Assembly: GCA_008632985.1 (NCBI GenBank)
Contig: QPGO01000167.1
Coordinates: forward strand, 124,001 to 171,590
DNA: 47,590 nucleotides
DNA from: Psammoneis japonica
Lineage: Eukaryota
Direction: 5' to 3'
The number at the start of each line of letters is the position of its first letter. The first letter of the stretch is position 1. Position numbers and translations under genes: made by a program. The notes under the pieces were generated by a model that searched no databases, was not told the DNA's origin, and saw only the letters and a list, made by a program, of their open reading frames with translations. This document shows positions 6,930-42,879 of this stretch, piece by piece.

Positions 6930-7140
6930 TCACACTTGGCACACACAGAGTGCGCTGCAGCTCTCCTCATGCTGGGCCTTTTCAGAAGTGCTGGGCAAGG
7001 GATGCTTCTGTGTGCATGTCTCACCAGGGCAGCACAGTTGCTCATGATGCCACTCAGTCAGAGGTTTTTTTTGCACCTTTGGCACAATGATTTTGTCCCA
7101 ACAGCACATCAGCTGTCGTGATGGATCTCCCCCAGGAAGT
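6930..7140 (-). pseudogene. Ty3/Gypsy integrase zinc-binding (H2C2) fragment
   Basis: Minus strand reads GG..RQLMCCWDKIIVPKVQKKPLTEWHHEQLCCPGET, then after a frameshift TEASLAQHF, matching the KIVVP..LQ..I.EWYH..LCHPGETRTE.TI.QHF pattern recalled for Gypsy pol; WYH has become WHH. Confidence 0.6.
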
Positions 7141-7908
7141 GCGTTGCTGTTGTGGACAGAGTGTGCTGCTGTCGTGCGCTCAGCAACGCGTGCTTGCCTT
7201 TCTGCTGCTCCAGCTTTGTTTGCTGTTTGAAGCTTGCCAGTGGAGCTGAAATGCATCCAAAGCAAATGCTTCATGCAGAAGATGCAGAAGATGTGTGTCT
7301 GGCATCTTGAAGACAGCAGGATTGCACTCGGAACCCAAACTTGGTTCCAGCACCCAGATGACTGAAGGGCATCTGCAACCAGGCCACACAGAAAACACAT
7401 CCCCCCCAAGTTGGGGCCCATCTTGGGGGACCCTTTTCACCCTCAACATGTCCTGCCCCTGCACCCCTCCGCTGCCACATGTTGAGGGGTCATGCCACAA
7501 CTTGAGGGTTTCCCGCCCCATTTGCACCATCTTGAGTGTCCCCGTGTCAAGGCATGTCACTTGCCCTGTGTCTCCATTGCATCATTCTGCAATGTAAGAT
7601 TTTCCTTGTGCATGACTGTGCAACATCATCCCATGACATCATTCTGCAATGTCAGATTTCTTTTGCATGACAGCATGATGTCACATCACAAATGCCAGAT
7701 TTGCCGCTCCTCAAGAACTGACCCAGCCAGATTGAGTGTTTGTGCTTTTTTCTCCATGGAACAACCACCTCCTGGCTCAAATCTGACATTGCGCAACACA
7801 GTGCATGTCCACTGGAGAGAGATTGTCAGCCTCACCATTTTGTTTTTTGGCAACACCACACACACCGTTGCACCGCCATCACAACCACTCTTTGCAGCTG
7901 ACACCACA

Positions 7909-8304
7909 GACGCGTTCCAGCCCTAGGTGGGAGCTCGTAGTACTGACGTGTGACAACAATAATTTTTATCATCCGTCGTATGTTTCGTACGTAGATTTCT
8001 ACGTGTGATATTTAAAAAAAATTGTCCAGACTCGCTGTTTTGCGAAGCCCCAGACGTTTTATATAACAAATTTATAGAAACAATAATGCGCCAGTTACAT
8101 TCTTCAATGTCTGAAGAATGTAACTGGCTAAGTAAAAAATGATGTACTTCAATCATGTGCGAGTTTGTGCGTTCGCAAAATTGCCTCATTTTCTGTTGGC
8201 GATCATTGACATTTTAATTACCGTATAATTTTACTACGGAGCTCGCACGTAGAAGTCTACGGGCCCAATGTCACACGGATTCCCACCTACGTCTGGAACG
8301 CGTC
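7909..8304. mobile_element. 396-bp MITE, copy 1 (unmutated)
   Basis: TIRs GACGCGTTCCAG...CTGGAACGCGTC extending imperfectly to about 24 bp; 4-bp TSD CACA (7905-7908 / 8305-8308); central 17-bp-arm hairpin at 8090-8128; second copy at 40833-41228. Confidence 0.92.
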
Positions 8305-9690
8305 CACATGCCTTTGATTGCACTCTTTCTTGCTCTTCACTCACTCAGATTGATCCTCACAGTTGGACTCTGCAGGGCACACTTTGAAGAGTTCTGGGTG
8401 AACAACATTGAGCACTTCTCCATGCTGCTGTCTCTGTGCACTGCACCCATCTTTGCTTGCTGAACAAACATCTGCTGCTCATTCTTCTTCATTTCTGTCA
8501 AAGCCTCACCTGCTGCACCTCTTTTCTTTTCCCGCACCATCTTCATCAATGTTGCCCTTGCTTTCTTGGTTGCCTGCGTGAACAACATTTGCAACAAAAG
8601 GAAGCGACAATGCAAGGCACACATGTGGCACACACTTGCCTCTTCAGTGTCATTGTCCTCCTCCACCAGCTTGGTTTCCCATTCTGCATCATGAAGCAAA
8701 CCTTGCAGCTTCAATCTTGATCATTTCTCTTGTCTGTGGTGTCCAGCCCATTCATTGTCCATGTTTTGATCTGGCCATGATGGTTTGGGGGTTCTGGTTG
8801 TTGGTGCCGTTCATGCAGGAAGGATGACTGAGTCTGCCCCAAACAGCACTCCACTGCAGTTGTTCATGCTTTGTGTCCAATGTTCAGTGGAAAAGTTGAT
8901 TTGTGTGTTGGTTGCAGCTCCATCGGATGTGTCCTTGGCAGTTTTCAAAGTTTTCACGGTTGCTGTTTGCAGGTGCTGGAAATGTTCATCGTTGAAGTTC
9001 TCAATTTTAAATTTGAACAATGACAGGGGGTGTTTATGTTCCTGATCCTTTTGAAGGACCATTGCCTCAAGAGTTCATCATCAATCTTGTTCAAAGCCGG
9101 CCCAATCTTCGTTGGCTTAGAAGTGATCTGCTATTGGCTGAAAACCAGGCCATGTTGCAGAATAAGAGAACCGACATCGAGTTTGTGTCGAAATAATAAG
9201 GATGTAGCGTACGGCAGGCGTAAAGTGGGTGTAGTGTGTGGAATAGATATTTTATGACACAAACCAGTGTCTATACACCTCTACAAATAATCATGTTTTC
9301 TTTTTTAACCGTGTGTGCAATAAGATGATTAGCTGGATACAATCGAGCCAAACGTTTTTGAGACGTTCGATCGACTCCTCGTCCCATCATCAGACACATA
9401 CAGTATACCACAAACTTTTTTTCGGCATTATGAGAGAAGGTGGATATATAGGAAGAGAGGAATGTTTCTGGGGAAAGCCTGTTTTGTAAACAAAAACATG
9501 GTTGCGTGAGTGCAAATGTTCAGTTTCTCTGGCGGTTCCTTATTGCGTGTCTCTTTCGTCTATCGTGTTGTGCGCCGCCGGCTCCCTCGTCGCGCACTCG
9601 TGTGCTGTTTATGTTCTGGACGCGATTGGTTCTCTTTGTGCTGCTCCTCGGTGGACAGTGTTCTAATGGTCACACACACACTTGTGCTTT

Positions 9691-15799: not shown

Positions 15800-17240
15800 C
15801 GAGCGATTGTCTTGGTGACAGTGACGTTCGCTGCGATTCAGACTGCCCCAACGACATTGTTGGGGGCAGGATCCACGACAATGGCAAAAGTTCCAAGGTC
15901 TTTTTCGGACGTCGATCCTGAGTTTTCAAGGGGACGGCAAGTCTGTGGAGACAGCCCCACTCGAACCTGGATGACCAAGTGCCGATCCTCCTTGTGATGA
16001 CACGGAGGTGGTGGCGTTTTACAACAATGCAGTTGTTGGTTCCAACCTGATTGTTCACCGCATGTGCACGCACCGCCCTGCCACCCCGGAGTTTTGCCTT
16101 CAAAACGTGACTCTGCTGCTCCTTCATTCTTTTTCACCGGGAGTCTGCGGTGAAAATGGCTGTGCTCAACCTGCAACATTCCATGGAACGTCGACATGCG
16201 AAAACAACGGAGGTGTTGACGCACTCCACTTCACTGGCAGTCATTCGGCTTCTGGACCTGCTGTGCCCCTCAATCTGCCAAAAACGCTGCTGCCTGTCTG
16301 TTTGTTGATGACCAGACTCCATGGGGAGTGACTGTTGTTCCAGGTGTCATCAGCCAGAATGATGCGCACGTGTCTGTTGACAAAGACACGGCTGAGCTTC
16401 ATCGAACCGTCATCAGTCTCTCATTGCCAAGCAGAGACTAAACTTTAGAGTCGCAACCATGACTCGTCTTCAAGAAGAAGAATTTCAAGCCGAAGCACCC
16501 AATGCGTGCAAGTCTTTTAATGTCCCACAAGAACAAAGGGTGCAGGTGCCCCTCATTGTCCTTTCTTTCTGTCGGAAAAAGAATGGTGCAGGGGGCTTGC
16601 CAATGATCCCTTTTGCACAGACTCTCCTCACCAAGAGCCAGAAGCTGCGGTTGACGCGGGTGCGATTGCAGGCTTTGCAATCCCAGGTTGTGCTTTGGTC
16701 TTTCTTGCATTTTACATTCACTGCCATTGCAAACTCAGGGAACAAAAGCACCCGCACAAGAAAATGTTTGCACGTCATGTGGCGCGAAACATCTCGATGG
16801 CACCATCGCCAGGAGGTCTTGGCCCCGAGAAGCCAGCCAAAGAGTTTTCTCACATTGACAAAGACAAGGGTGGTTGCATTGAGAAGGACAAGTTGAAGGC
16901 TTTTCTGTAAGATGGAAAGGCTGGCCAGTTGTCGGACCCCGATTTCCAAGCCTTGTGGAACTCTGTGGATCTCAAAGGCAATGGAAAAGTCAATTTTTTG
17001 TCGACTTCTGCACGTTTCTCAGTGGGTGTGGAGATGAGTTTGACGAAATGCATGCAGAGAAGGAGAAAATGTCATGTTCACAAAAGATCGAATTTGCTGC
17101 GAACCGTTTGTCCATGTGCTCCAGTGCGAAACCAGCAGGAGCTGACATTGTTGAAGAACAAGAAAGAAGACAAACCAGTGGCTGCAGCTCACAATGTTGA
17201 TTTGGCGCCATTGAATGCGGCGGAAGAGTCAGACGTGTGA
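15800..17240 (+). pseudogene. TpA-mutated pseudogene of a single-pass membrane protein with C-terminal EF-hand pair
   Basis: From 16611: FCTDSPHQEPEAAVDAGAIAGFAIPGCALVFLAFYIH (TM), then EFSHIDKDKGGCIEKDKLKAFL* and DFQALWNSVDLKGNGKVNF/VDFCTFL (EF-hand loops). Stops and frameshifts present. 5' limit uncertain. Confidence 0.65.
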
Positions 17241-17464
17241 AGCCATTTGGTTGGCAGATTAAAAAGGTTTGGAAAGATGTATTTAAAAAAAGTTTCTTGC
17301 CTGCAGTGAAACAGTTTCGACTGTGCTTTACTGCAAAGAAGGCGTGTGCGCCAGTAAAGTAGAAGTTTACGTGGGGTACCCGGAAAAAAAGATACCGAAC
17401 ATTCAATGGTATCCAGCATAAAAATGATATTTGTGAATTATCTAGTCGGATGCGTCAAGGAAAA

Positions 17465-19610
17465 GGCAGCTCGTCAAACAGTGTGGGGAAAGCTACATAA
17501 TGACACCATTGAAGTAGACGGTCATTCGTTGAGTAAGTTCCCCTTATGTAGCTTATAACTTTATAAGCTACATAAGGGAAGTTTATAAGCTACATAACGC
17601 AATGATTCAACAACCTGCTCTATGTAGCTTATAACTTTATAAGCTACATAAGGGGAGTTTATAAGCTACATAAAGCGATGCATTATACACTACATAACGA
17701 CAATCGATCAATTACTTAACAAGAGTCATTGTTGTCAGTATAGTGAATTCAGACGCACGACGTCCAGACGATTGAAGCACCTACGAAATAAAGAACGAAC
17801 GAACGTGAAGCCCTCCATCAAAACAACACAGGAAAAAGACCACATGATGGCAGCAACAGCCAATGCTAGATTGTGCCACCAAACCTTTTCCAATGCCAAT
17901 GCATTGCATGCCACATTTTGCTCTGACAAGCAGCACATCCATGAAAAGAGACAGGTTGGACAAAGTCCAAAAATGAGCGAGAAAACTCCTTCTGTGATTT
18001 TGTTGTCATCCACAATCTGGAATCTCACAACTTCAACAGCTGATGTTGCTTTGCCACCAAACTTTTCCCACCAACAATGCTGACACATGACATGCTTCAT
18101 TGCACTCGGAAAAGTGCACACACATGAGAAAAAAGAGAGGTGAGAGAGAAAGAGCCCGAAAATTGACAAACATTCCTTCTGAGTTTTTTTGCTGATGTTC
18201 AGGCTCTTTTCTCAAAACTGTGATGTTTCAATTTGCTCATTCTTGACAGATTGAAGAGTGCAAAATTTGTTCTTCAGACAGCATTTCAAGAGGGGAGACA
18301 AGGGGCGACTCAAGGGCACAGAGCATTCGTTGTGGCAATCTGCAATCTGCCACTTTTGGAAAAGTCTGGGAACAGCTGGCAAATGAGGTTGCTTTTGCCT
18401 CTGAACATTTGAGTGACTGCATGGGATGTTGCTCACTCTGGCTGCAGTGGCCGGCACCCAGGCGCAACTTCTTCTTGCAAAGATGTTCACGTGGCTTGGG
18501 TCCCCCCCACCTCTGAACATCAAGTGGAGCCAAAAAAGGTTGCTCCCTGGTGAGACATTGATTGACACTTCCAAGGAAGGGAGTGTCTTTCAATGCTGTG
18601 GGCACAAAATCTCGGCCGCAGCAGGAGGGCTGCACACTGACCTAAAAAGCTGGCGTGTGTGGGTTGACTGCTCTTGGCATCATGACTGCCACCACCACTG
18701 CCATTTTGACTGCCACCATTGCAACTTCTGCCATTGAAATTGCTGCTGTTGTGACTGCTGCAATTTCAACCACTGCTGTTGTGACTGCTGCCGTTTGCCG
18801 CTGGCGCCATTGCGGCTGCTGCCACTCGGACTGCACTGCAGCTGCTGCCGCTGCAGCCACTGCCATTGCAGCTGCCACTGTGGCAACCACCATTGTGGAA
18901 ACTGTGATTGTTGCAACTGCCATCATTGTGACTGCTGGCGCCATTTGGACTTCTGCTGTTGTGACCACTGTTCGGCTGCAGGGTTGGCTGCGAGGAGCTG
19001 CGACTGCACCACTGTTTGGACTGCTGCTGTTGAAGCTTGAGTGTGCTTTTGCTTTTTGCCTTGATTGGCAATGCTCTCTGCATCTTGCTTGTTCTGGAAA
19101 CATCCTGTTTTGCCTGACTGTGCCCTTCCTCTGTTTTTGGTCCCCCCACACAAATGCTCTTTTGCACAGCTGCCTTGAGATTTTCCAAGGACTGCTGAGT
19201 TTGTTTTTCCTCATCTCTTTTTTGCTTGTCAATCAATTCTTGCTCTAAAGCCTCTTGCCTTTCCCTTGCTCTGGCCACTTGCTGCTCTGCCATGACTGCT
19301 TTCTGATGCTTGCTTTCTTGTCTGGAGTGTGCTTCCACAATGGCCAAGGCCAACCAGGCACTTGGCTTTCATGCCAGCTCTTCTTTGGCATCACACTTGG
19401 CCCCAATGGAATTCCTTGTCCTTTGATGTGGGCCACTCTTCTGCCAGAGCCCTTTCTGCTGCCACCACTGCCGGCTCCGCCCATGGTCATTGATGCTGTT
19501 TTGTGTTCCTTCCAAAACTTTGACACCCGGGCTGCTTTGGCGTGTTGACTCTCGCTTCGCTCGAGTCGAGTTAATCAAAACGCTCTGCCCACACCAGGTG
19601 AAAAATTGCC
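17465..19610. mobile_element. Non-autonomous DNA-transposon-like element E1 with imperfect ~29-bp TIRs and subterminal palindromic repeats
   Basis: Left end GGCAGCTCGTCAAACAGTGTGGGGAAAGC vs right end reverse complement GGCAATTTTTCACCTGGTGTGGGCAGAGC (19/29 by hand). Motif TTATAAGCTACATAA repeated in both orientations at 17541-17675. Decayed minus-strand ORF remnants inside. Confidence 0.7.
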
Positions 19611-19616
19611 GGAAAA

Positions 19617-20071
19617 GGCAGCTCATCAAACAGTGTGGGGAAAGCTGCACAACAACACCATTGATGCAGACGGTCATTCGTTGAGCAAGTTCCCCTTGTG
19701 CAGCTCATAACTTCACAAGCCACGTGAGGGAAGTTCACAAGCTGCATGACGCAATGATTCAACAACTTGCTCTGTGCAGCTTGTGACTTTATGAGCCACA
19801 CAAGGGGAGTTTACAAGCCACACAAAGCGATGCATCACACACTGCATAATGACAATCGATCAATTGCTTGACAAGAGTCATTGTTGTCAGCACAGTGAAT
19901 TCAGACGCACGACGTCCAGACGATTGAAGCACCTACGAAATAAAGAACGAACGATGCTGTTTTGTGTTCCTTCCAAAACTTTAACATCCGGGTTACTTTG
20001 GCGTGTTGACTCTCGCTTCGCTCGAGTCGAGTTAATCAAAACGCTCTGCCCACACCAGGTGAAAAATTGCC
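19617..20071. mobile_element. Internally deleted 455-bp derivative E2 in tandem with E1
   Basis: 19617-19953 matches 17465-17801 and 19952-20071 matches 19492-19610, joined at GA microhomology. AAGGAAAA flanks the pair (17457-17464, 20072-20079) and GGAAAA separates the two elements. Confidence 0.8.
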
Positions 20072-20309
20072 AAGGAAAAATCCAATGTTGGATGGAAACT
20101 CTTGCAAACAGTTAACAGCACAATACAGCAGCGAAGCGCAAATTTTTCTCTACAGTAGAGTAGAGAAAAGAGATGAGCAATAACTGCTCTCTACTCTAGA
20201 GTAGCTGCTAGCTAGCAGAGAGTGACAGCACATCACTCTCTGATTGCTCTGTGTTGATTGTTTGGCGACGAAATGAACAAGCGCATCGCGTCGCGTCCCG
20301 CAAACAACT

Positions 20310-23300
20310 TTATTGCTGGATTTGAAAGGACGAATGCGCATACACAGCTCCGCCACCTGGCAGGGAAATCTTGAACTCTACTGTGAAACACCCCACGCCA
20401 AGCTCACTGTCATGATTCCGCACTTTGAACACCCATTTTCCACTGCTTCTGACAAGTCGCATGGAACCATCACGAATGCGGATTTCCTCGAGGGAGCTGG
20501 TAACGCCTCCAAACTTCAATGTCCCATTCACCCTTGGCTCTTGCCCTGTCTTAACCAGAGCCTCTGTCACCATGTTTCCGCTACAATCCTTCAGTTGAAT
20601 CTTGAGGAAAAGATGCTTCTGTGTGATTTTAAATGCTCTCTTTTCCAAGTAGGAAGGGCAAGTAAAGTCTCTGCCCTTGGCCGGTGCCGGGTGAACAAAA
20701 ACCTTACCCATTGGTCTTCTGGTCGTAATGTCACAGGGGACAAGAACCGTGCGTTTCACATGGTTCTTGTTGCCACACCCATCCTTCGCATGCATGTTGC
20801 TTTTGCATGTTCCAACGACGCCCACGTCAACGTCGACAGAGCGATTGATGTGTAAAATTGGTTTTTCGCCGCCGCTTTGATGTGGGTCGATGCCTGCATT
20901 TAGATCAGCTGTGCTGTTGCAGACAAGGGCAACAGACAGTTGAAGCGGCTCGCTTGTATTTCTTTCGCATTTTTCAGCTGTGGCGATCCATCTACGCCAG
21001 ATTGATTCGCTTGATTCGCAGCCTACCCGAACAGTAGAGCCGTCCTGTACTTTGTCAACATCTCTGCAAACGGTTCCACTTGTTGCAAAAGAAGCTGAGT
21101 CGGTGCTGGGACCACAGGCGGCGGGCTCCTCTTCCATCGTAGCACTTGAGTTGCTGCTCAACTGGTGGACTTGGGCACGGCCGGAGTTGTCCCACTTTTG
21201 TGATCCCACAACGATGCGATTGCCGTCTCCAGACATGGCGACGGTCGATCCCCACCGCACTCTAGACTCGGGATTCAAGCCCTGCTGAGCACCAAGCTTT
21301 GTCCACTTGTTTTGATTCTCGTCATGTTGGAGAACCATGACGCATCCTTGCTCATTGTATGTCTTGTCCCCAAAAATTTCACAACCCGGATTATGCAATT
21401 TACCCTCACATGCAATCTGGATGCACCCAACGGCGATGCGCAAACCATCATCCGAGAGAGAAACGGAAGTTCCGCATGCGTCACACTTTAATGCACCTTC
21501 GACAAATCCCCCCAAGAGCCTGTAAGTTGAAGTCTTGCTGTCCCATTTGTACACATGAACACGTCCTCGCCCTGTGTTGGGCTCCCCAACCGCCACAATC
21601 TTCCCGTCGCCAGAAATTGACAAGGTGCTTCCAAATTTTGTCTCACGGTCTACACCGCTCGACAATTTATCCCGCAGCTCCCACGTCGGCGTTGTGCCTG
21701 ATTCATTGAGGTAACAAACATGCAACTCTGATCGCCCAGCAGCCGCAATTAGCACCTTCCCATCTCCAGATAATTTGTGTGCCACAGAGAAACCCAATGT
21801 GTTCAGTGTTTGTCCAATTTGCTTCCATCGGCCACTGGTCCATTCGAACACGCGGCAACCATTGGCGTCAGGGTCTCGTGACTCTGGTGCGCACGAAAGG
21901 AACCTCGTTCCATCGTCTGAAATTGAGACTCCTGTACCAAAATACAAATCAAACGAATAGTCTCGCCCCCAAATGTCCTCTCCAACCTGTTCCCAAAGCA
22001 TTTTAACGGCATTCATCTTGAACACTCGAACCAAGCCATGTTTGTTGTTGGGGCTGTCATTGTCATCCGAGCCAACGGCAATGCATTCACAATTGGACGA
22101 CATTGAAACCCCTTGGCGGTCTCCAAGGCGGTGGCCTCGCTCTTCATTAATGATTGCGTTTCCAAAAGCGACAAGTTTTCCGTTAGACGTGACTCTTCTG
22201 ACTTCGACTTTGCCGGCCGTTCGTCTTCCGTGTCTGGGATGCTCCTCACCTCCTAGAGCGTCAGGAAATGAAGCCGCCACACACTTGCCATCCCTAGACA
22301 TTGAAACTGTCTGGGGGAATCTTTCATCGCGTTCAACGTTATTGTCACCCTCCCAGAACTTTCCAAGAGGCATCCAACTCAGCTCAGCACTTTTTTCATT
22401 TTTTGTTTCCTGTGCCGAAACAAACGCCCAAGTTGATTTCCGACCACAAAGACTTGCTGTCCGTCTCCTGAAATGTGAACGCTCGTACCCCAATGAGAGG
22501 AGGGGTTTGCTCGAATCTTGTCTTGATTTCCAACATGAATCCACTTGCCGAGGGTACCATCAAAGTCAAGTATGATTACATCACCTGAGCATCCCATGGC
22601 TAATCTCGTACCGTCGGATGAGATCGTCACGGACTTCCCACAAAAGCCATGTTCAAAGTTTCCAATGTGCCCGTATCCCGCAATCGGTTCACTGGCTCTC
22701 TTATATGTTGCTTCTTCAGACATCCACTTGTACACATTTACACGCCCGGTGTACCCTGCATCAATGACGTTTTCCACCTCAACATCGACTTCATGTCGTG
22801 TTGACCCAATGGCAATAACATCCCCGTTGAATGAGAGGGACATGGCATCCCCTAAATGAGGGCTACTGCCTTTTTCGTAAGCAGGTTGAAATGTGTTTCG
22901 CAGCTTCCACCTAGGTGGAGCAACAGATTTGTCGAGCTGATACACAAATGCTTTGCCCTTCGTATGGGGAACATCTGGAGCTCCAACAGCCAATGTTTCT
23001 CCATCACCAGACAGCACGGCGCTTTCACGAAACCTCGTCTTCTTCAGATTAAATGTTTCAAGGCTTTGTCCGAGTTGTTTCCATTTGCTGCTAGTCCATT
23101 CATAGGCGCGGCAGACTCCTAGTTCACATGAGGCAATCTTCTTGCCATCGTCAGATGTGGACAACTGTCGCCCGAACAACTCGTGGGAAGGTTCCTCTGC
23201 CTGAATGTCGAGTCCAACCTGTTTCCAATTATTTGAGGCATCGTCATTCTTGAAGACGCGGAGAATGGCCTTGGAGCTCATGCCTGTTCCAATGTGCTTA

Positions 23301-23818
23301 CAGTCAGACGAGAGCGCAATGCCAGTGGCTTGTTCAGAAAGGATTATCTCGTCTGCCGCTTGCACTTCCGCTAGCTTTACTTTCCCTTTGGGTTTTACCC
23401 GTCTAATTAAGACCTTTGTATCCGACGACACAGCAATGCATTCGCCATTCCTGGACATTGACGTGGCTCCTGCAAAAGGAATGTTCTTTGTTCCTCTCCA
23501 GACGCCTCCAACAGGACTCCATTCCATCATCCCTCTGCTGTTTGTGCTGCAGGATGTGACATCTTGGGAGTGGCCCAGGAAACGGGCCAGTTGATAATTA
23601 CCATTATTCGCTTTCTTCGCATTCAAGAGACGATAACGGAGAGGAACGACACGTTAGTTAGTTGAGAAATAACGAAGAGCATCCTTCGATTTCTATCGCA
23701 CAGGCTGACACACCTGATGGTTTTGTCTATTCCCATAAGTTGCAATTGCGAATATGGCCCAAATTAAGTACGATGCGGCAACAGGTTGCCTCTTCCTTGT
23801 TTCCATGGTCGTTTTCAT
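20310..23818 (-). CDS. FG-GAP/integrin-type beta-propeller repeat protein, tandem copy 1 (one frameshift ~22400, probable intron ~23615-23713; partly TpA-mutated, possibly pseudogene)
   Basis: Repeated FG.(S/T)(V/L)S(I/L)S.DG..(L/V)AVG.P and W.Q(V/I/L)G motifs across ORFs 22379-23626 and 20310-22544; colinear with copy 2. Confidence 0.75.
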
Positions 23819-24275
23819 TGTCTTTGATGTTCCGGATGTTTTTTTATGCGTTGTTGGTTGTTGGTCTGGGGTCTTGGGTCTTGAGACTCGTCCGGTAGTT
23901 GAGATAAAGTCATTGTTCTCGAATTTTTTCAATAAGTCTTTCATCGTGTACTGTACGGTACTTTCAGATATCCTCACGTGGATGAGACAAAATTTCTGTC
24001 TCGTGTGACTCAATGATGGGTTCGCATTGCATCATTTATAAATAATTTATTGCCCTCCGGTCATGAACCTCGTTAAATGAAAAAAGGCCTGCACGATTCG
24101 TCGATTTGAAGATTATTCCACTGGGATGCAGAGAAGACAACAACATCATCTATCAGTCACTAAAAACATAGACATCGTACTAAAGCACTTTGCATAGTAT
24201 TCATAGCTCTACTTTGATTCGAATTTCGCGTCTTAACGAAATGGATCGATCTCGTGCGCTCCGCTTTCTTATTTT

Positions 24276-27200
24276 CTACTTCTTGATTTGAAATGATGAA
24301 TGCGCATAAACGGCTCCGCCACCTGGTAGGGAAATCTTGAACTCTACAACGAAGCACCCTACACCAAGCTCACTCTGGTGATTCCGCACTTTGAATACCC
24401 ATTTTCCATTGCTTTTTGCAAGTCGCATGGCACCATTTTGAATGCGGATTTCCTCGAGGGCGTCACGGTTGTTAATACCACCAAATTTCAATACCCGGTT
24501 CACCTTTGGCTCGAGTCCTGTCTTAACCAGAGCCTCCGTTACCGTACTGCCACTGCAATCCTTCAGTTGAATCTTGAGGAAAAGATGCTTCTGTGTGATT
24601 TTGAATGCTTTCTTTTCCAAGTAGGAAGGGCAACTAAAGTCTCTGTCCTTGGCCGGTGCCGGGTGAACGAATACCTTACTCATTGGTCTTCTGGTCGTAA
24701 TGTCGTACGGAACAAGAACCGTGCGTTCCACTTTGTTCTTCTTGCCACAACCATCATTTACATGCACATTGCTAGTGTATGTTCCAATGACACCCACGTC
24801 AACTGCACCAGTAGCATCAATGTAGGCTCTTGGTTTTTCACCGACCGCATGATATGGCTCGATGCCTACCAATTGATCAATTGTGCTGTTGCACCCAATG
24901 GCAATCGCTATTTGAGCGGCTCATTTGTGCTGCTTTCGCATTTATCCATTGTGGCGGTCCATCTGCGCCAAATGTATTTGCTAGCTTCGCAGCCTACGCG
25001 AATCATGGCTGCATCGTCGTCGCCCTCTACCTTGATGTCGGCATCTCTACAAACAGTGTCACTCGTGGCGAACGCAGCTGGATCAGTGAGGGAAGGACAG
25101 GGTTCCTCATCCTCTGTGGCACTAGAGTTGCTGCTTAACTGATAGACTTGGGCTCGGCCAGTGTAGTCCCATTCTTGTGAACCGACAACGACGCGATTGC
25201 CATTTCCAGACATGGCGACGGTCGATCCCCAACGCACTCGAGACTCGGGATTCAAACCCTGTTGAGAACCAAGATTTGTCCATTTATTTTGGTTCCTGTC
25301 GTATTGGAGAACCATGACGAATCCTCGCTCATTCAACGTCATTTTCTTTCGAGCGCAACCAACAGCATTCAAGTTACCCTCGCATACAATCTGGTTGCAC
25401 CCCACGACAATGCGCAAACCATCGTCGGCTGAGAGAGAAATGGACGATCCACAGGCATCATATTTCAATACTCCTTCAATTGGCTCCCCCAAGAGCTTGT
25501 ACGTTGAAGCCTCTTTGTTCCACTGGTACACGTGAACCCGTCCACGCTTGGTGTTAGGCTCACCAACCGCCACAAGCTCCCCGTTGCCAGAAATTGATAA
25601 GGTGCTTCCATATTTTGTTTCAGGGTCTTCACCGCTCAAGAGTCGATCGCGTAACTCCCATGTCGGTGTTGCACCCGATTCATTCAGGTAATACACGTGT
25701 ACCTCCGGACCAGCGGCAGTCGCAACAAGCACCTTTCCGTCGCCAGACAACTCATGTTCCACGGAAAACCCCAAGTCATTTAGTGTCTGTCCGATTTGTT
25801 TCCATCGACTACCAGCCCATTTGTACATTCGGCAGCCATTTGTTTCGAGTTCGAGGTTTCGTGACTCTTGTTCGCAAGAAACAAATTTCCTTCCGTCGTC
25901 TGATATAGACACTCCGGCACCGAAGTATAAACGATACGAGTTCTCATGCCCCCAAACGTTTTGGCCAACCTGTTCCCAACTCATTTTGTCGGTGTTCATC
26001 TTATATACTCGAACCATACCATCTTTGTTTGAGCCTTCGTTGTCGTCCGAACCAATGGCAACATATTCACAATTGGACGATAGCGACACACCTTGGTGAT
26101 CTCCAAGGCGAAAGCCTCTCTCACTGTTGATGATTGCATTTCCATAAGGAACCAGCTTTCCACTGGACGTGATCCTTCGGATTTCGACTTTGCCCGCCAC
26201 TCGCCTACCGTGTACAGGATGCGCCTCTGCCAGAAAGTCAGGAAACGCAGCTGCAATACACTCGCCATTCCTGGATATTGAAACGCTCTGGGGGACCCCT
26301 GATCGTTGTCAGTCTTGCTTCCTCCCTCCCAGAAATTTCCAAGGGGACGCCAACTCAGCTCTGTGGGTGTGTCAACCTTTTGTTTCCTATACCGAAACAA
26401 ACGCCCAAGCTGGCTTCCCTTCACAAACACTCGTTTTCCGTTTCCTGAAATAAGAACACTGGTGCCCCACTGGTTTGAGGGGCTGGTTCGAATTTCGTCT
26501 TGGTTACCTACTTGAGTCCACTTGCCGAGGGTACTGTCAAACTCAAGTATGAGAACGTCGCCTGAGCATCCCATGGCTAATCTCGTACCGTCGGATGAGA
26601 GAGCCACAGACTTCCCACAACCATTGACATACTGTCCAATATGCCCGTATGCCGTGATCGGCTCGCCGACCCTCTCATAAGATGATTCTTTAGCCGACCA
26701 CTTATACACGTCTACTCTCCCGGTGTAACTGTAACCATATACCTTCTCCACGTTGAACTCTAGCTCATGTGCAGGTGACCCTATTGCCAAAACATCTCCG
26801 TTGAGTGAAAAGGATAGAGCATCACCTAAATATGGGTTTCCTCCTTCCTCACAGGCAGGCTGAAATTTGTTTCGCAGCTTCCACAGAGGAGGACTAACAG
26901 ATTTGTCCAGTTCGTACACAAAGCTGTGCCCTTCGTATCACGAACTAGAGGAGCTCCAATAGCTATTTTTTCTCCATCGCCAGACAAGATCGCGCTCTCA
27001 CGAAACCTGATCTTTTTGTCATTGAAAGTTTTAAGGCTTTGTCCAAGTTGTTTCCATTTACTGCCAGTCCATTCATACGCTCGGCAGACGCCTAATTCAC
27101 ATGATGCAACCTTGCTCCCATCGTCAGATATGGAGAGCTGTAGCCCGAACAAATTGTGAATAGGTTTCTCGGCCTGAATGTCGAGTCCAACCTGTTTCCA

Positions 27201-27762
27201 ACTATTTGAGACGTCGTCATGCTTGAAGACACGGAGTGACGACTTGGAGCTCATTCCTATTCCGATGTGTTTACAGTCGGATGAGAGTGCAATGCTTGCG
27301 ATGTTTTCGAGGTGGCCTGAAAGGAGTATCTCGTCCGCCGCTTGTACTTTCTCTAGCTTTATTTTCCCATTTGCAGTGACGCGTCTAATTACTACCTTTG
27401 TAACTAGCGAGACAGCAATGCACTCGCCGTTCCTTGACATGGAAGTTGCTCTCGCAATATTTCTCCAGTAGCCTCCAACTGGAACCAACTCCATCCCGTT
27501 TTTTCTCATTTGCAGGCGGTGACATCTTCTGAGCCGCGCAGGACACGGGCCGCTGGGTAAACACCAGTAGTGGCGTCCTTCGCGTTCCAGGCAATACCAG
27601 ACAGAAAGAATGAGAGTTGAAAAAAAGTAAAGAAGATCTCCTGCTAACCAAACAATCAACTCACCTGGTTTTGTTTGCGACTAGTGCCCAAAGTTGTACT
27701 TACTGTAGGGCCCAAATCAAGTACGACAAGGCACCCAAGTGCCTCTTCTTTGTTGTGTACAT
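24276..27762 (-). CDS. FG-GAP/integrin-type beta-propeller repeat protein, tandem copy 2 (single-base frameshifts ~26925, ~26295, ~24912; probable intron from 27664)
   Basis: ORFs 26826-27659, 25996-26919, 24908-26200 and 24276-24872 align end to end with copy 1; each break is a one-base loss relative to copy 1. Confidence 0.75.
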
Positions 27763-31429: not shown

Positions 31430-33400
31430 AGACATGGAGAGCATGCGGCATGGAACCATGTCCAAACAAGCTATGTTCTATTCTTCTGTCTCTTCTCACT
31501 TGAAAGGCATGTTTGCATTGAAGGTGGCATTGACACATCATGCATTTGCAGCACCAGTGTGAGGATTTTCAAACCGACAATGTCATTCTCCGTCTCCATC
31601 TTTCCCATCTGACATGCAACACTGTACCTCAAGACACACAGTGCCTCAAGACACTCCACAAAGTGTGTTTTAGTTTTTGTTTCTTGTTGCCTTCTAATCT
31701 GCAGATGAGGTTTGAGACACGACCTGAGCAACTTTGGGTCGCTGTCGGGAACGACTTGTGTGCCTTGTCAGCTCAGGGTTGTCATCAGAAGACCGTGTGC
31801 TTTGTGGTGACGAGGTGTCAACGAGTTTTGCAAACTTAAGACACACAGCACAGTGCCTCAAGAAATGCAGTGCCTCAAGACACCATCACGGAACACAGTG
31901 TGTTGCACCTCAAGCTCGTCTCATTTCTTGCCAAGTGGTGCATGACTGTCCTCTCTGCACTGCAGTGAGGTTGCGGTGTGCGCTGGATGACTTGAGACAG
32001 TGCCTCAAGAAATGCAGCACCTCAAGACACCATCACGGAACACGGCACATTGCATCGCAAGAAGCAAAACAACCCATTTTGTTCGTTGACGACAATGTGC
32101 TGGTGTGACCTGTTGAGTTCTCGCGATTGTTTTTAGAGCAAGTGACATTCATCCATGACACTGTCTGGCCATCTGCTGAATGTTGCAGGACGGTCCTTTG
32201 TTTTGCATGTTGAGTTCCTTGATCACCTGCTTCCAAATCGTCTCTCGCTCTTTCTCGCACAGAGCGAAGTGAGCTCTCAAATGGGAAAATTGCAGAACCA
32301 CATGCCACAGACACGGCAGGTGACACGGTGTTGGTCGGACACATGGATAAAAACAGCATTCTCGATTCATCAAGCGATGCACAAGAAGCATCTCAGTGCA
32401 CAATGAAGTGTTGCGAGAACACTCGGCTCACAATGTTGAGTGTGAAGTCATTGATCACCGTGGTTGTGATGATGGGGTGGCTTTGTCACTGAAGCATGGA
32501 AAGGAACAATTAAAATTAGTGAAGGTTGGAAAGACTGAACATGTGAGTTGATCCGATTTGAGCTGTTCTGCTCTCACTTCTGTTTCCATCTCTCTCATTG
32601 CTCCTTGTCCTTTTCAGTCTTTCAATTTGGATGTGATTCATGTTGGACTTGCAGCGAGACAGGCTGTTGGTCTTGGTTGCGGATCACGCACGTAAAGTCT
32701 GTAAGAATGGTGCCGCGCATGGGTGCACATTCTTGAGTGTCGAATGTCTGTCTGTCATCATGATTGCACAGTGGAATGCGCGATTTTTACAGAGCATTCA
32801 CTCATGAATGTCGTTGCATCTTCGCAATTCAAAAATCCCGCCGCCACCAAAGATTGCGTTGTTTCTGCGCCCATTGGTGCAGACCTGATCATGGTGTGTT
32901 TTTCTACAAGATCTTCTGCGGCGTCCATTTGGCCAACACAACAAGACACGCTGCACAACACCGCCATTGTCATCGCTCTCAACACCTCTTGAACCTCTCC
33001 AGGGGATGTTGACACTCAACATCCACATCAGTGTTGTCTTCGTTTCACTCTTCTGCTTCGTGGCAGCTCGTCGCGACCTAAGTTGCTTTCCTGCATTCCA
33101 TGAGTGAGGCGTCACTGCCCCACCAAAGAATCGCAATTCCGCGGATGTGTCAATCCATGCAACAAGTGACGTGCCGGTTGTTGGTGCTGCAAGTGTGACT
33201 GCGTGTGCACTGCATTGCATCATGCTGTCATGGTGGACTCATGATGCGTCTCGCATCATCATCTCCATTGTACATTTGAATCAGTCCATTGCCGGCAACA
33301 CCTTCCACCACTGCACAAAAGCCCCTGCCACTGTTGCGTGTGGATCCACGAGACAAGCAGCAACACAAAAGGTCCCGCCGCAACGACGGTTGCTTGAGCC
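31430..33400. mobile_element. TpA-depleted decayed block of unknown family with six copies of a (G)TACCTCAAGA-derived motif at 31620-32030
   Basis: TA depletion; motif variants GTACCTCAAGA, GTGCCTCAAGA, GCACCTCAAGA; ~55-bp duplication 31850/31997. Confidence 0.5.
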
Positions 33401-35429
33401 ATGTCCTCGAGTGCCGAGATTTCATCTGACCATGGTGGTGGCATCAATGGCCTTGTAGAACCTCAGCCGAACAAGCTTGTGACGCAGAACGAATCCATCC
33501 AAGCTCTGCGCATGTCAAGGAAATGTGTCGGCGAGTTGGAGGAGGACACAATGACAGAGTCCAGGCAGAGTGGTTCCCTTTTGAGCAACGAGGATGATGA
33601 TGACATTGAAAGCGAAAAGCTGTTGATGGATGAGGACTTTGTGTTTGACTTTGAAGACGACTTTGATGCCACGGATGCCACGGATTTGTCAAGGTGATTG
33701 GATGGTTGCAATGAGAGTGACATTGCAGAGGAGGATTCAATGACAGAGTCCAGGCAGAGTGGTTCCCTTTTGAGCAATGAAGATGATGATGACATTGAAA
33801 GCGAAAAGCTGTTGACGGATGAGGACTTTGTACTTGACTTTGAAGACAACTTTGATGCCACGGATTCGTCAAGGCAATTGGATGGTTACAATGAGAATGA
33901 CATTGCTGAACTTGTCGTGAAGTTCAGAGATGCTGCCGACAAAAGCAAAGCTGCGCATGAACTTTTCAGCCTTGAAGAAGAACCACTCCAAGACACAACA
34001 TCAAGGAAACCAACGAAGAAAAGGAAACGAGCAAGAGGTCGTCAAGCCGCCAAATCGAAGTTGAAGAAGCGTCGCAGGCGCACTGGGAAACCTGCTGCAT
34101 CGAAAGCTCCCCCCAAAAAGGTGAGTTTGTTTGCACTCAAATTATGATGATCTTGGTTTACAACTGGCACTCACTTTTGGCTTCTCCAGTTGTCGCGAAT
34201 GACTCCATCCAGGTTGAAGACAAAGGCCGATCAACAACAAGAAATGCTTGTGAATGTCGAGTTGCCACCAAGTCTCAACCTGGAGGCATCTCCAAGAGAA
34301 GCGATCACCAAAGTTTCGGAACTGGTGGAGAAGGTTGATTCGTGCCAACAAGCAAAGGAGCTGGCAACTCGAATTGATGCCTGCATCATCCTGTTTGCCC
34401 ATGCAAGAGGGCACACGGTTCGCCCTTTGAATCTTGGCAATGGGACATCAGACAACACAAAGGGAATCGCGCTGCTGCACTGCGCACCCGACGATTGCAG
34501 TTCTTGTCTCTCAATGCTGGACAAAGCTGTTGGGAATGGCTCATCATGCCTCAGCTTCATCTCCAACTCCAGTTGTTGCATCAATGCATGCAAGTGCATT
34601 TGGGCGGCAATGCATTGCAAGGAATGGATCAAAGATGCCAAGGAATTGGCCAAACTCATTTGTGCAGTTAACTTGAATCCAGTTCTGGCGGAGAAGAAGA
34701 GCAAAAACTGACAGCATGATGAGTTTTGTAGGACGGTTGGATGGTCTAAAAAAGAATGGCATTGGTTGGCCGCATTGAGAATGGAACTGCAGGCAAAGGC
34801 AATTTGCCTTCGAGACCGAAAGGGTGGTGCACAACTCACAGCTCTCCAGTGGATGAGCAAGTGTGATGCTGTCAAGATGCCTCACTGTGATTTCGAGACA
34901 AACGATGATCATGGCGCATGTCCCGTGCTTCATCCACAAGCATGGTTTGGTGCATCCATTTGTGCAGAACTCCTCGTGCTTGAGAATGTGTCGCAGAGGG
35001 AAATCAACGACTGCAGTGCAAACTGTTTTTGTGGGAAGGTTCTTGAGCATCAACACAAGACGAAGAAGGCTGCACTGTTCTCAAAACGTTTGCAAGCTGT
35101 GGGTGCAACCAAAGAGGATGTACGAGAGTGTGAGTTAGAGGTGAAGCTCATCAAGAAGGCAATGTTGGAGCTCATGCAAAAATTCAAAAAAAGCGTTTTG
35201 ACAAGAAAGAACTCAGCTGCTGGTCAAGAAGCTTGTCAACACATGAGAGAAATTTGTTTTAAGACATTGCACAAAGAATGAATTCAAAATGATCACCTCG
35301 AGTCAGAGACGTTCCATGGAATGACGCTGCATCAACACGCTTGTTGAATTCTCAGCACAGAGTCAGGGGCTGGAACGGGCTTGACTCTTTGTCAACACAG
35401 AACGGCAATGAGGCTGTTGTGTCATGGAA

Positions 35430-38010
35430 AGGGTTGGCTCCAAAGACTCGATGACATCTGCGCATGCAAGGAAGAGCACGGTGACAGTGAGCCGCCTTGC
35501 ACTTGGATGCTGCTGTGTCGATTTGTCATCTAAACTCCCTTTTGTTTGCTTGTTGTGACTCCAGCTGCAATCAGCCACATGAAAGATCCGTCTCTCTACC
35601 ACCGATGGATCCGGAAACAATGCAACAACAAGGAGAATCTAAGCGAAATGAAGCGTCGAGAACTGGAAAAGCCAGTTGGTGATTTGGATGACTGCTCGCG
35701 ACAGTGTGACACACCCAAGTCTTTTGAAGAATGACTCGAGGACATTTGTGTGTGCAAGGAAGAGCATGGTGATGGTGAGCAGAGCCGCTTGCGTGTCTCA
35801 ATGAATGGAGTCTATTTAGAATCTAACTCTTCATTTGTGTGCTTGTTGTGTGTCTCGCTCAAGTCATCAAAGCCAAAGACAGGTCTCTCTATGAATGGAT
35901 CCAGTGTCAATGCAACAACAAGGAGAATCTAAGCGAAGTGAAGCGTCAAGAACTGGAAAAGCCAACTGGTGATTTGGACAACTGCTCGCGACAGCATGAC
36001 ACACCCAAGTCTTTTGAAGAATGACTCGAGGACATTTGTGCACACAAGGAAGAGCACGGTGATGGTGAGCAGAGCCGCTTGCGTGTCTTGATGAACAGAA
36101 TCTATTTAGAATCTAACTTTTCTTTTGTGTGCTTGTTGTGTGTCTAGCTCGAGTCAGCCAGACAAAAGACAGGTCTCTCTACGGATGGATCTGGAAACAA
36201 TGCAACAACAAGGAGAATCTAAGTGAAGTGAAGCGTCAAGAACTGGAAAAGCCAACTGGTGATTTGGACGACTGCTCGCGACAGCATGACACACCCAAGT
36301 CTTTTGAAGAACGACTCGAGGACATTCGTGTGTACAAGGAAGAGCACGGTGATGGTGAGCAGAGCTGCTTGCGTGTCTCAATGAATGGAATCTATTTAGA
36401 ATCTAACTCTTCTTTTGTGTGCTTGTTGTGTGTCTGGCTCAAGTCAGCCAGACAAAAGACAGGTCTCTCTGTGGACGGATCCGGAAACAATGCAACAACA
36501 AGGAGAATCTAAGCAAAGTGAAGCGTCGAGAACTGGAAAAGCCAGTTGGTGATTTGGACGACTGCTCGCGACAGTGCAACACACCCAAGTCTTTTGAAGA
36601 ATGACTTGAGGACATTCGTGCACACAAGGAAGAGCACGGTGATGGTGAGTAGAGCCGCTTGCGTGTCTCAATGAACAGAATCCATTTAGAATCTAACTCT
36701 TCTTTTGTGTGCTTGTTGTGTGTCTAGCTCGAGTCAGCCAGACAAAAGACAGGTCTCTCTACGAATGGATCCGGCATCAATGCAACAACAAGGAGAATCT
36801 AAGCAAAGTGAAGTGTTGAGAACTAGAAAAGCCAGTTGGTGATTTGGACGACTGCTCACGACAGTGTGACACACCCAAGTCTTTTGAAGAACAACTCGAG
36901 GACATTCGTGTGTGCAAGGAAGAGCACGGTGATGGTGAGTGGAGCCGCTTGCGTGTCTCAATGAACAGAATCTATTTAGAATCTAACTCTTTTTTTGTGT
37001 GCTTGTTGTGTGTCTGGCTCGAATCAGCCAGACAAAAGACAGGTCTCTCTGTGAATGGATCCAGCATCAATGCAACAACAAGGAGAATCCAAGCAAAGTG
37101 AGGCGTTGAGAACTGGAAAAGCCAGTTGGTGATTTGGACGACTGCTCGCGACAGTGTGACACACCCAAGTCTTTTGAAGAATGACTCGAGGACATTCGTG
37201 CATGCAAGGAAGAGCACGGTGATGGTGAGCAGAGCCGCTTGCGTGTCTCGATGAACAGAATCTATTTGGAATCTAACTCTTCTTTTGTGTGCTTGTTGTG
37301 TGTCTAGCTTGAGTCAGCCAGACAAAAAACAGGTCTCTCTGTGGATGGATCTGGTGTCAATTTCGAGACAAGGAGAATCTTGGTGAAGAAAAGCATCAAA
37401 AACTGGAAGAACTCATTGGTGATTTGGGCGACTGCCAGTGCTTCACATGCAACTCTTTTGAAGAACGACTCAAAGACATCCACGCATGCAAGGAAGAGCA
37501 TGGCGGCAGTGAGTCGAGGCTTTTTTGTCTCTTGTTTTACAGAATCTATTTGGAATCTAACTTTTCTTTTGTTTGCTTGTTGTGTGTCTAGCTCGAGTCA
37601 GTGAAGCCAAAGACAGGTCTCTCTACGAATGGATTCGGCATCAAGTTCGAGACAAGGACAACCTCAGTGAAGAAAAGCATCGAAAACCAGAAGAGCTGGT
37701 TGGTGATTTGGATCACTGGTTGCGACAGCGTGAGTCACCCAAGTCTTTTAAAGAATGACTGCAGGACATTCGTGCATGCAAGGAAGAGCACGGTGGTGGT
37801 GAGCAGAGCCGCTCACGTGTCTTGTTGAATGGAATCTGTTTAGAATCCAACTCTTTTTTTGTTTGCTTGTTGTGTGTCTAGCCATGGTCAGCTGCACGAA
37901 AGATCCGTCTCTCTACAAATGGATCCGGCGTCAACTTCGAGACAAGAAAAATCTAAACAAAAAACAGTGTCGAGAACCAGAGGGACTCATTGGCAACTCG
38001 GAAGCCCAGC
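35430..38010 (+). repeat. About nine tandem ~290-bp exon+intron units, each encoding an HA-like domain
   Basis: Period 290 bp (35839, 36129, 36419...). Each unit has G|GTGAG donor, CTAAC branch point and CTAG acceptor; spliced consensus SFEERLEDIRAYKEEHGD|ARVSQTKDRSLYEWIRKQ...NLSEVKRRELEK. Confidence 0.85.
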
Positions 38011-38262
38011 CCGGCTTGCCTCGGCCTCCTCCTCCTCCGCTTCCAGTCTGCACTCAGCTCCCAGGTCAAATGATTGCAGCACACCCGCGCTTGCTTCCAC
38101 CTCCTTTGCACCTCTCAGCGATTGCCGGTTCTCCACCCGTTGTTCTTCCTTCTGCTTCCGCCCCTTCACTCGTTCTTGCTCTTAATCCCGCCATGAAGAC
38201 AGCTGTTCAGCCCCAACAGCCTGTGCAGGTTGTGCATTCCTCCAACCCAGGGTTTGCATGCC

Positions 38263-38445
38263 CTCCGCCACCACCACAAGTGCACCCACTGCTGCCGCAA
38301 GTGCATCCGCCGCCACCGCAAGTGTGTCCGCCGCCGCCACAAGTGCACCCGCCGCCACCGCAAGTGTGTCCGCCGCCACTGCAAGTGTGTCCACCACTGC
38401 ATGTGTGTCCGCCGCTGCAAGTGCATCCGCCACTGCAAGTGCACT
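38263..38445 (+). repeat. 21/18-bp coding minisatellite PPPPQV(C/H), ancestral PPPPQVY inferred
   Basis: Units CCGCCGCCACCGCAAGTG followed by CAC, CAT or TGT. Confidence 0.8.
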
Positions 38446-39165
38446 GTCACCCCTCCTCTTGGGGGGAAAGGAGGGAAAAGCATTGCACAGCAGGAAGAGA
38501 GGGTTGTGAAAATGTTGGACTTTTGTGACTGGCGACAGCTCCGCAGAAGTGATGCCAGCATGTCGTGTAGAAATGAGAAACGAACATCCTGTTTTTTTGA
38601 CAGACTGCGACTGGCATCGCTTTGCTCACACGACTTCTTGCGGTGATCTGATTCTAGAGACAGGTGATCAGTGGGGATGGGAGGACTTCACTGGTGCAGT
38701 TGGTCCCTTTCCATTCCCAAGCTGGAGCGGCATGGCCAGAGGGAGGGAGAGGTGGGAGCGCTTTTAGACTGTCCACTCAGCTTGCTGCCAAAGCTCTTCG
38801 GAAGAATGAGCAACAGCAGCTTGCTTCCAAACACCAACTTGAACGCGTTCAATGTGGCAGATGCGGGGGGTGATTTCCCGGTGCGTCATCAACGGGCAAT
38901 GAGGTCATCTCCCCTTGTCGGTCTTTACGAGGCCAGTGACTGGCGTCGCTTTGCTCGCATGACTTCTTGCGGTGATCTGATTCTAGAGACAGGCAACCAG
39001 CAGGGATGGGAGGACTTTGCTGGCGCAGTTGGTCCCTTTCCATTCCCAAGCTGGAACGGTGTGGCCGTTCCGGCGCCACCCACGCACACTGGTGTGGGTG
39101 GTGGCGGTGCAATTGGGTGGGTGGGTGGGCCTGGCTGGAAGGCTGAGGCGTGGCCTGTGATGGAA

Positions 39166-42760: not shown

Positions 42761-42879
42761 AGTGCCATTTTCTAGACTCCACTTGTGGGGGTTGTGGATG
42801 CATGGGCTTGTGTGCCCGTGCGGGAAGTGGCTCTTGGTTCCATGTCCCCGAGCAGGAACCATTGCCAATGACCTGTTCG

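Follow-up and report, generated by a model that had tools for sequence, protein, structure and literature searches.

In ascomycete fungi, repeat-induced point mutation (RIP) changes C to T at CpA, making TpA; both members of a duplicated pair are mutated, and the process leaks into genes which lie beside repeats. ADAR-type A-to-I hyperediting of RNA leaves clusters of A>G/T>C changes, with U/T favoured before the edited A. A process closer to the one considered here has been reported from the chlorarachniophyte Bigelowiella natans in a recent preprint (Mettrop et al. 2026, bioRxiv 10.64898/2026.01.13.699255). The preprint describes A>G/T>C hypermutation confined to TpA in integrated giant-virus and virophage DNA, which is restricted to defined regions, is episodic and arose in culture in some lines; such changes also separate the 2012 reference from the 2021 culture of one strain. 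The authors put forward an ADAT2-like deaminase as a candidate and draw the comparison with RIP. Diatoms are not mentioned in the preprint, and a full-text literature search gave no description of such a process in diatoms. The present analysis concerns two tandem FG-GAP/beta-propeller genes, copy 1 and copy 2, in a 47,590-nucleotide stretch of DNA from Psammoneis japonica (assembly GCA_008632985.1, contig QPGO01000167.1, positions 124,001 to 171,590; this whole stretch is called the window), and the original prediction that hypermutation had entered one of them. We favour, with moderate confidence, the reading that copy 1 of an intact tandem pair has received a light and probably repeated dose of a TpA>TpG/CpA process which has stripped the neighbouring repeat DNA of nearly all its TA.

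The locus resembles the B. natans case in that the change is confined to TpA, which becomes TpG or CpA according to strand, with TA depleted and CA plus TG enriched. It is also regional, in that 12 of 17 listed differences between copy 1 and contigs built from reads of the same organism are of this type, against 1 of 23 elsewhere, and in that the DNA flanking copy 1 has observed/expected (o/e) TA ratios of 0.55 and 0.64. Finally, it appears episodic, and so recent that separate DNA preparations from a single organism differ in it. The target is different: in B. natans it is foreign or selfish, whereas copy 1 belongs to the host, carries FG-GAP_2 repeats and has 235 homologues, and the heavily affected DNA of the window consists of repeats in which Pfam recognised no viral or element genes. 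The host here is diatom-like rather than a chlorarachniophyte, and the pattern is known from the window and the contigs of one sample rather than from mutation-accumulation lines. Like RIP, the process would be a regional, dinucleotide-specific mutator of repeat DNA, able to reach an adjacent gene and to cause many amino-acid changes at once. Unlike RIP, it has the opposite direction and chemistry, so that TA is destroyed and no TAA or TAG stops arise; moreover, a single duplicate is affected, the copies being 76% identical and copy 2 having a normal TA content (o/e 0.57-0.59) and one TA-type difference from the contigs. Hyperediting by ADAR, if fixed by reverse transcription, would share the A>G/T>C clusters and the preference for a preceding T. 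However, copy 1 is a tandem genomic copy, with a putative intron placed as in copy 2, and not a retrocopy; and the erased repeat DNA described below, including the repeat copy E2, is changed on both strands at neighbouring sites.

Copy 1 and its read-derived version

Contigs from three public sequencing runs of one sample of the organism (X1, X2 and X3, of which X3 gave none) were aligned to positions 20250-27730 of the window. Those over copy 1 are 98.8-99.6% identical to it and only 76% identical to copy 2, and therefore represent a version of copy 1. All counts of window against contig rest on 40 of the 91 differing places, the share of TA-type differences (TA in one sequence, CA or TG in the other) being known for those 40 alone. 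The 12 TA-type differences in copy 1 lie at 20734, 20751, 20762, 21066, 21258, 21412, 22278, 22280, 22955, 22987, 22995 and 23087. Each has CA or TG in the window and TA in the X1 contigs, and none of the 17 differences goes the opposite way. In copy 2 and the spacer between the copies, the single difference of this type stands beside three of the opposite type (Fisher p=1e-5 vs copy 1). If TA is ancestral, all 12 are A>G/T>C changes, seven being T>C and five A>G on the gene strand. They are spread over codon phases 1-2, 2-3 and 3-1 (2, 4 and 6, respectively), six are synonymous and six alter the protein, and ten have a T-A-pyrimidine (T-A-Y) context. The change at 20734 falls in the codon at 20735, where copy 1 reads VPCD and copy 2 VPYD, and here the contigs have Tyr. 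At 20762 the window has His and the contigs again Tyr.

With copy 2 as outgroup, the reads are matched at six of the 12 places, four of them nonsynonymous, the window at three, all of them synonymous third positions, and neither at three. Since the copies have diverged by 0.19 nonsynonymous (dN) and about 0.6 synonymous (dS) substitutions per site, this pattern of agreement favours TA as the probable ancestral state at the recent places. A transfer of copy 2 sequence to the read-derived allele by gene conversion was considered as a source of the differences and rejected, because over all 17 of them copy 2 matches the reads at 6, the window at 7 and neither at 4. That real TA>CA/TG changes are present in copy 1 is very probable, and the recent layer of these is well documented.

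Divergence of the two gene copies

The two copies were aligned from 20316-23627 (copy 1) and 24282-27590 (copy 2), both on the minus strand, with 76.2% identity over 3356 columns. Each encodes about 1100 residues, comprising two propeller halves of FG-GAP type and a C-terminal part for which Pfam gives a weak Ig-like match. The 235 homologues of copy 1 were those at E<=1e-5, the best being 29% identical, and the nearest named relatives include diatom proteins. Values of dS 0.55-0.66, dN 0.19 and dN/dS 0.28-0.36 indicate that the duplication is old and that both copies are under constraint. Their closeness to the distant homologues is about even (66 agreements for copy 1 and 61 for copy 2), and neither contains an in-frame stop in the 1087 aligned codon pairs, out of 1113 copy-1 codons, on which the codon comparison is based.

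The original prediction listed ten places at which copy 2 has Tyr and copy 1 Cys or His, with a single case the other way (PAYE/PACE). All ten are present, at codons 22414, 22085, 21716, 21485, 21326, 21167, 20882, 20852, 20807 and 20735, and the opposite case lies at 22879. An eleventh Tyr in copy 2 was found at 22858 (SPHL/NPYL), which gives a final ratio of 11:1 (binomial p=0.006); in total, copy 1 has 17 Tyr and copy 2 has 36. At the nucleotide level, copy 1 contains 83 TA dinucleotides and copy 2 135, and CA/TG in copy 1 stands opposite TA in copy 2 at 52 places, against 23 in the opposite direction (p=0.001). The imbalance depends on the neighbouring base. Differences between A and G are 29:10 after T and 36:29, 20:20 and 15:15 after A, C and G, while T/C differences are 23:13 before A and 13:10, 25:33 and 13:11 before C, G and T. 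The GC content of third codon positions is equal in the two copies (0.496 in copy 1, 0.492 in copy 2), which rules out a general drift towards GC. GC-biased gene conversion was also rejected, as it needs an excess of AT>GC in all contexts and the asymmetry is seen just next to T/A.

The following base matters as well. The ratio is 36:8 if a pyrimidine comes after the changed A and 14:14 if a purine does (T-A-R); a second tally gave 38:14 for T-A-Y and 8:15 for T-A-R (p=0.002). The long-term excess in copy 1 is thus limited to the T-A-pyrimidine context, and the repeat pairs lean likewise. With a TA o/e of 0.36-0.38, copy 1 is the lowest of the ten coding stretches in the window, although modestly so; eight other genes range from 0.46 to 0.62, and copy 2 is typical of them. 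The deficit is found in the Tyr codons (0.28) and NTA codons (0.34) of copy 1, for which the values in the other genes are 0.51 and 0.48.

Distant homologues, at 29% identity or less, polarise few sites. Copy 1 is derived at 21326, where Tyr occurs in 13 of 26 homologues and His in none; at 21167, with Tyr in 6 and Phe in 3 of 10; and at 23158, where 47 of 53 have Ile, Leu or Met and one has Thr. At 23092 copy 1 gained a TA. The homologues thus have Tyr, or Tyr and Phe, and not His at 21326 and 21167, and at 21635 it was copy 2 that gained the Tyr.

The contigs separate a part of the asymmetry from the remainder. Restoring TA at the 12 recent places raises the TA count of copy 1 from 60 to 72 in the 2593 bases covered by listed contigs (copy 2: 95), and lowers the CA/TG-TA asymmetry over the same bases from 34:19 to 28:22. 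The approximately 720 bases of copy 1 outside these contigs have an asymmetry of 18:4 (52:23 minus 34:19), and further TA-type differences may be present among the remaining 51 places. For three of the Tyr sites (20882, 20852 and 20807) the covering contig has a single difference that is not listed, and four (22414, 22085, 21716 and 21167) lie outside the listed contigs.

It is possible, although we think it rather unlikely, that the contrast is mostly the divergence of old paralogues (dS ~0.6) in amino-acid and codon usage, with copy 2 moving towards more Tyr and NTA codons and copy 1 towards fewer, and that the recent TA changes are a separate, minor layer. Several results speak for this and weigh against a mutator as the source of the Tyr list. 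The asymmetry depends on codon phase, being 11:1 at phase 1-2 and 23:3 at phase 2-3, ie 34:4 inside codons, and 16:18 across codon boundaries. Such phase dependence is not predicted by a frame-blind mutator, so divergence of the ordinary kind, in amino acids and codon usage, contributes. The condition named in the original prediction, an excess loss of TA at synonymous sites of copy 1, gave a divided answer: NTA>NTG shows an excess (17:3), but NNT|A>NNC|A does not (10:13). Copy 1 Phe stands opposite copy 2 Tyr in a ratio of 6:0, which is not a TA>CA/TG change. It is copy 2 whose NTA-codon o/e (0.72) stands above all eight other genes (0.48 overall), while the 0.34 of copy 1 is within their range of 0.27-0.60. 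Copy 2 gained a TA at 21635, where Phe accounts for 73 and Tyr for 5 of 208 homologue residues, and also at 21833, and no outgroup closer than 29% identity was found in the protein collection. Of the 11 Tyr sites, 20735 alone coincides with a listed recent difference. At 22858, 21485 and 21326, which fall in contigs with every difference accounted for, the window agrees with the contigs, so that those differences are older. The equal conservation of the copies and the ratio of 28:22 left after restoration point the same way.

Against paralogue divergence stand the specificity to the base after T and the T-A-Y context, which codon selection does not predict; in that context the codon-boundary phase gives 10:6. 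Copy 1 also has His or Thr at core positions where the homologues have Tyr or Ile/Leu, and the 18:4 in its uncovered parts may conceal more recent changes. We read the older layer as a probable mixture of earlier events of the TpA process and ordinary divergence. Hypermutation of one tandem copy, as originally predicted, stands in that copy 1 is derived at the sites which can be polarised, the changes are TA>CA/TG, and copy 2 and the intergenic DNA are spared. The Tyr list from which it was argued is confirmed as an observation but is mostly older, and only some of it can be attributed to the mutator, so that the interpretation as a whole is partly supported.

TA-erased repeat DNA near copy 1

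The process attributed to copy 1 is seen in a heavier form in the repeats of the window. Repeat copies E1 (17440-17830) and E2 (19592-19982) differ by 74 substitutions, among which are 33 TA-type places, all with the TA in E1 (33:0), and the erasure of E2 ends near 19893. A second repeat pair, 7907-8310 and 40831-41234, gives 20:0. In these pairs the member which lies within TA-poor DNA is the member without TA. In E2, changes to TG and changes to CA alternate at distances of a few bases, and none of the 52 repeat-pair events yielded CG. A T-A-Y context accompanies 35 of 52 events and 15 of 34 unchanged strands, a leaning in the direction seen in copy 1 which is marginal (35:17 vs 15:19) and so detracts from the case for a common process.

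TA is depleted over much of the window. The o/e ratio is 0-0.15 in 1-3500, 7001-7500, 8501-9000, 16001-17000 and 18001-19500, mostly 0.06-0.17 in 31501-35500, and 0-0.28 in 38001-45000. E1 itself is rich in TA and lies between erased blocks at 16000-17000 (o/e 0.10) and 17960-19590 (o/e 0.03), either as a later insertion or because it is exempt. The region 38001-45000 is 7 kb of DNA with a GC content of 0.53-0.65 and near-normal CpG (0.6-1.1), and contains an open frame of 775 residues with no Pfam match. The erased blocks at 1-3500 and 18001-19500 are also poor in CpG (0.04-0.45, except for 0.75 at 501-1000), so that loss of TA and loss of CpG are separable. A tandem array of about eight units of 290 bases, 75-85% alike, occupies 35442-37993 in TA-poor DNA, with 3-7 TA per unit; it gave no signal of a flanking-base preference (p=0.44, only 5 usable columns).

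The original prediction described E1 and E2 as transposons and held that the Tyr differences were concentrated in the half of copy 1 nearest to them, and it offered spreading from them, or silencing of the redundant duplicate, as the explanation. A Pfam search of 12 additional long frames gave no family, either for the 11 which lie within or close to TA-poor DNA or for the one which is the putative first exon of copy 1. Five more frames of the GC-rich TA-poor region gave none, and E1 and E2 cannot for that reason be called transposons. Nor is there, at the nucleotide level, a concentration near the repeats: the asymmetry is 36:16 inside 20310-22440 and 14:6 in the rest of the copy, and the 12 recent changes show no gradient, with 8 in the 2130 bases of that half and 4 in the other 1210. 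As copy 1 is set apart from the erased repeat DNA by a TA-normal spacer, and no gradient is seen within the gene, contiguous spreading is unsupported. The unit affected looks like the gene itself. The features are collected in Table 1.

Table 1. Positions of the tandem genes, the repeat DNA and the assembly gaps in the window (o/e = observed/expected)
Feature	Position	Strand	Basis or property
Copy 1, main exon of tandem FG-GAP/beta-propeller gene	20310..23653	-	open reading frames; Pfam FG-GAP_2, E=1.2e-10
Copy 2, main exon of the same tandem gene	24276..27680	-	open reading frames; alignment to copy 1; Pfam
Span of the 12 places with CA/TG in window and TA in X1 contig	20734..23087	.	window vs X1 contigs
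Spacer between copies	23654..24275	.	TA o/e 0.64; 0/2 listed differences from contigs TA-type
TA-normal spacer, erased repeat DNA to 3' end of copy 1	19893..20312	.	420 bases; 17 TA; o/e 0.55
Repeat copy E1, unmutated	17440..17830	.	39 TA; TA o/e 0.92 over 17440-17960
Repeat copy E2, TA-erased	19592..19893	.	33 places TA in E1 and CA/TG here, 0 opposite; 6 TA
TA-erased block	17960..19590	.	3 TA vs 98 expected (o/e 0.03); no Pfam family in long frames
Apparent frameshift, copy 1, in A run	22398..22399	.	one X1 contig (depth 38.2 of 129.2) with one extra base, joining two long frames
Apparent frameshift, copy 2	24910..24916 (alignment ~24915)	.	contigs +1 base behind 24910; X1 depth 42.3 of 42.3
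Apparent frameshift, copy 2	26289..26296	.	contigs +1 base behind 26289; X1 depth 52.8 of 52.8
Apparent frameshift, copy 2	26922..26923	.	contigs +1 base behind 26922; X1 depth 57.1 of 57.1

Assembly quality, direction of change and significance

Apart from the tandem pair, the window encodes a sulfatase, the PPDK regulatory kinase, pieces of PPDK and F5/8-type-C proteins, a gene content which is eukaryotic and diatom-like. In the alignment of the copies, a putative short first exon with a hydrophobic N-terminus can be read for both (23713-23620 and the matching place in copy 2), together with a putative GT...AG intron with a CTAAC-type branch site ahead of the long exon; both features were read from that alignment alone. 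The window carries single-base gaps relative to the sample's own contigs at 22398, 24910, 26289, 26922, 27508, 27510 and 27706. Seven of the 11 indel rows are single bases present in the contigs and absent from the window, and four places remove frameshifts; these account for six rows, because at two of the four places the X1 and X2 rows differ in position by a few bases. All four frameshifts are probably one-base assembly gaps, and because the contigs close every one of them and no in-frame stop is present, both genes are probably intact. The three frameshifts of copy 2 had suggested a pseudogene, an idea which was dropped once the contigs supplied the missing bases. Pseudogene decay of either copy was likewise rejected, on the absence of in-frame stops, the closed frameshifts, the even homologue agreement (66:61) and the dN/dS of 0.28-0.36.

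Two further features of the contigs were observed. Over 24642-24708, in copy 2, there are 8 differences in 67 bases, for which the depth is halved in X1 (29.2 of 57 to 92.7) and full in X2. The contig sequence matches neither gene and could stem from a second allele or from a third paralogue; at two of the eight places the window has TA where the contig has CA/TG. Secondly, contig joints 22401>26378 (skipping 3976 bases) and 21995>27421 (skipping 5425) connect copy 1 to copy 2 at homologous places. Their short sides are 30 and 24 letters, and they could represent a fused-copy allele formed by unequal crossing-over, or an alignment artefact.

Gaps of this kind raise the question whether the CA/TG letters of copy 1, and perhaps those of the erased blocks, are long-read consensus errors, caused for example by a modification of TpA in silent chromatin, in DNA which really reads TA. 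Seven of the 11 indel rows are, after all, bases which the assembly lacks, and four of the places simulate frameshifts. In the 18 listed rows which X2 covers it never departs from X1, and the window letters at the differing places, the 12 recent ones included, are absent from the contigs of both runs. This last point, together with the restriction to 40 places, counts against the reading we favour. A probably heterozygous stretch, 24642-24708, does register as half depth, so the window would come from another clone or time point or contain consensus errors. Six of the 13 copy 2 differences from the contigs are synonymous, a share that fits either error or polymorphism. Nevertheless we consider such errors an unlikely source of the pattern. 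Copy 2 is richer in TA (128 vs 75) and has one such difference, which excludes a general mode of error, and an error linked to a modification limited to copy 1 and the repeats is disfavoured. E1 reads 39 TA normally while E2 has 6. The alternation of TG and CA in E2, with CG in 0 of 52 events, fits stepwise mutation which needs an intact TA, not miscalls by strand majority. Lastly, the same pattern in B. natans was found with Illumina reads (10.64898/2026.01.13.699255).

The opposite direction, in which RIP-like C>T change at CpA/TpG would have created the TA of copy 2 and that of the read-derived copy 1 allele, is very improbable. Two sequences alone give no polarity, and at 3 of the 12 recent places copy 2 does have the letters of the window. 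At 6 of them, however, it has those of the reads, and four of these are nonsynonymous. The homologues have Tyr and not His at 21326 and 21167. The TA level of copy 2 equals that of other genes, and its 1087 codons include no in-frame stop, although CAA, CAG and TGG would turn into stops. In the repeat pairs it is the member in TA-poor DNA that is without TA.

Under the preferred reading, a light dose of the TpA process in copy 1, the chemistry would be deamination of adenine at TpA in DNA, the A becoming inosine and being read as G, as is proposed for B. natans. Because a TA-normal spacer separates copy 1 from the erased block, the targeting would be guided, by chromatin or transcription state, rather than a base-by-base spread. 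Most of the Tyr>Cys/His sites would then be earlier events of the same process which have since become fixed.

An assembly with one-base gaps, and with differences from the sample's own read contigs, calls for caution over the whole TA-loss signal in this genome, and frameshift or pseudogene calls elsewhere in it may stem from the same kind of gap. The sequence comparisons nevertheless suggest that a TA-erasing mutator, rarely described, can touch host genes, a conclusion which needs support from raw reads. If it is real, the mutator is seen here at low dose in a gene for which an untouched sister copy and an untouched read-derived version both survive. How fast it acts, in which direction and on which strand, which flanking bases it favours and what it costs the protein could then be read site by site, unlike in fully erased repeats. 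The process would have been active recently and would be able to reach host genes in the manner of RIP leakage in fungi, although it cannot create TAA or TAG stops. More tentatively, and with a generalisation that we hold to be possible rather than probable, diatoms may possess an active, regionally guided TpA>TpG/CpA mutator, probably an adenine deamination with T-A-Y preference, which is not strictly confined to selfish DNA. It would occasionally mark a host gene, here a member of a tandem family, with bursts of change to codons for Tyr, Ile, Val and Leu that never produce a stop, so that clones of one species would come to differ by blocks of amino-acid changes.

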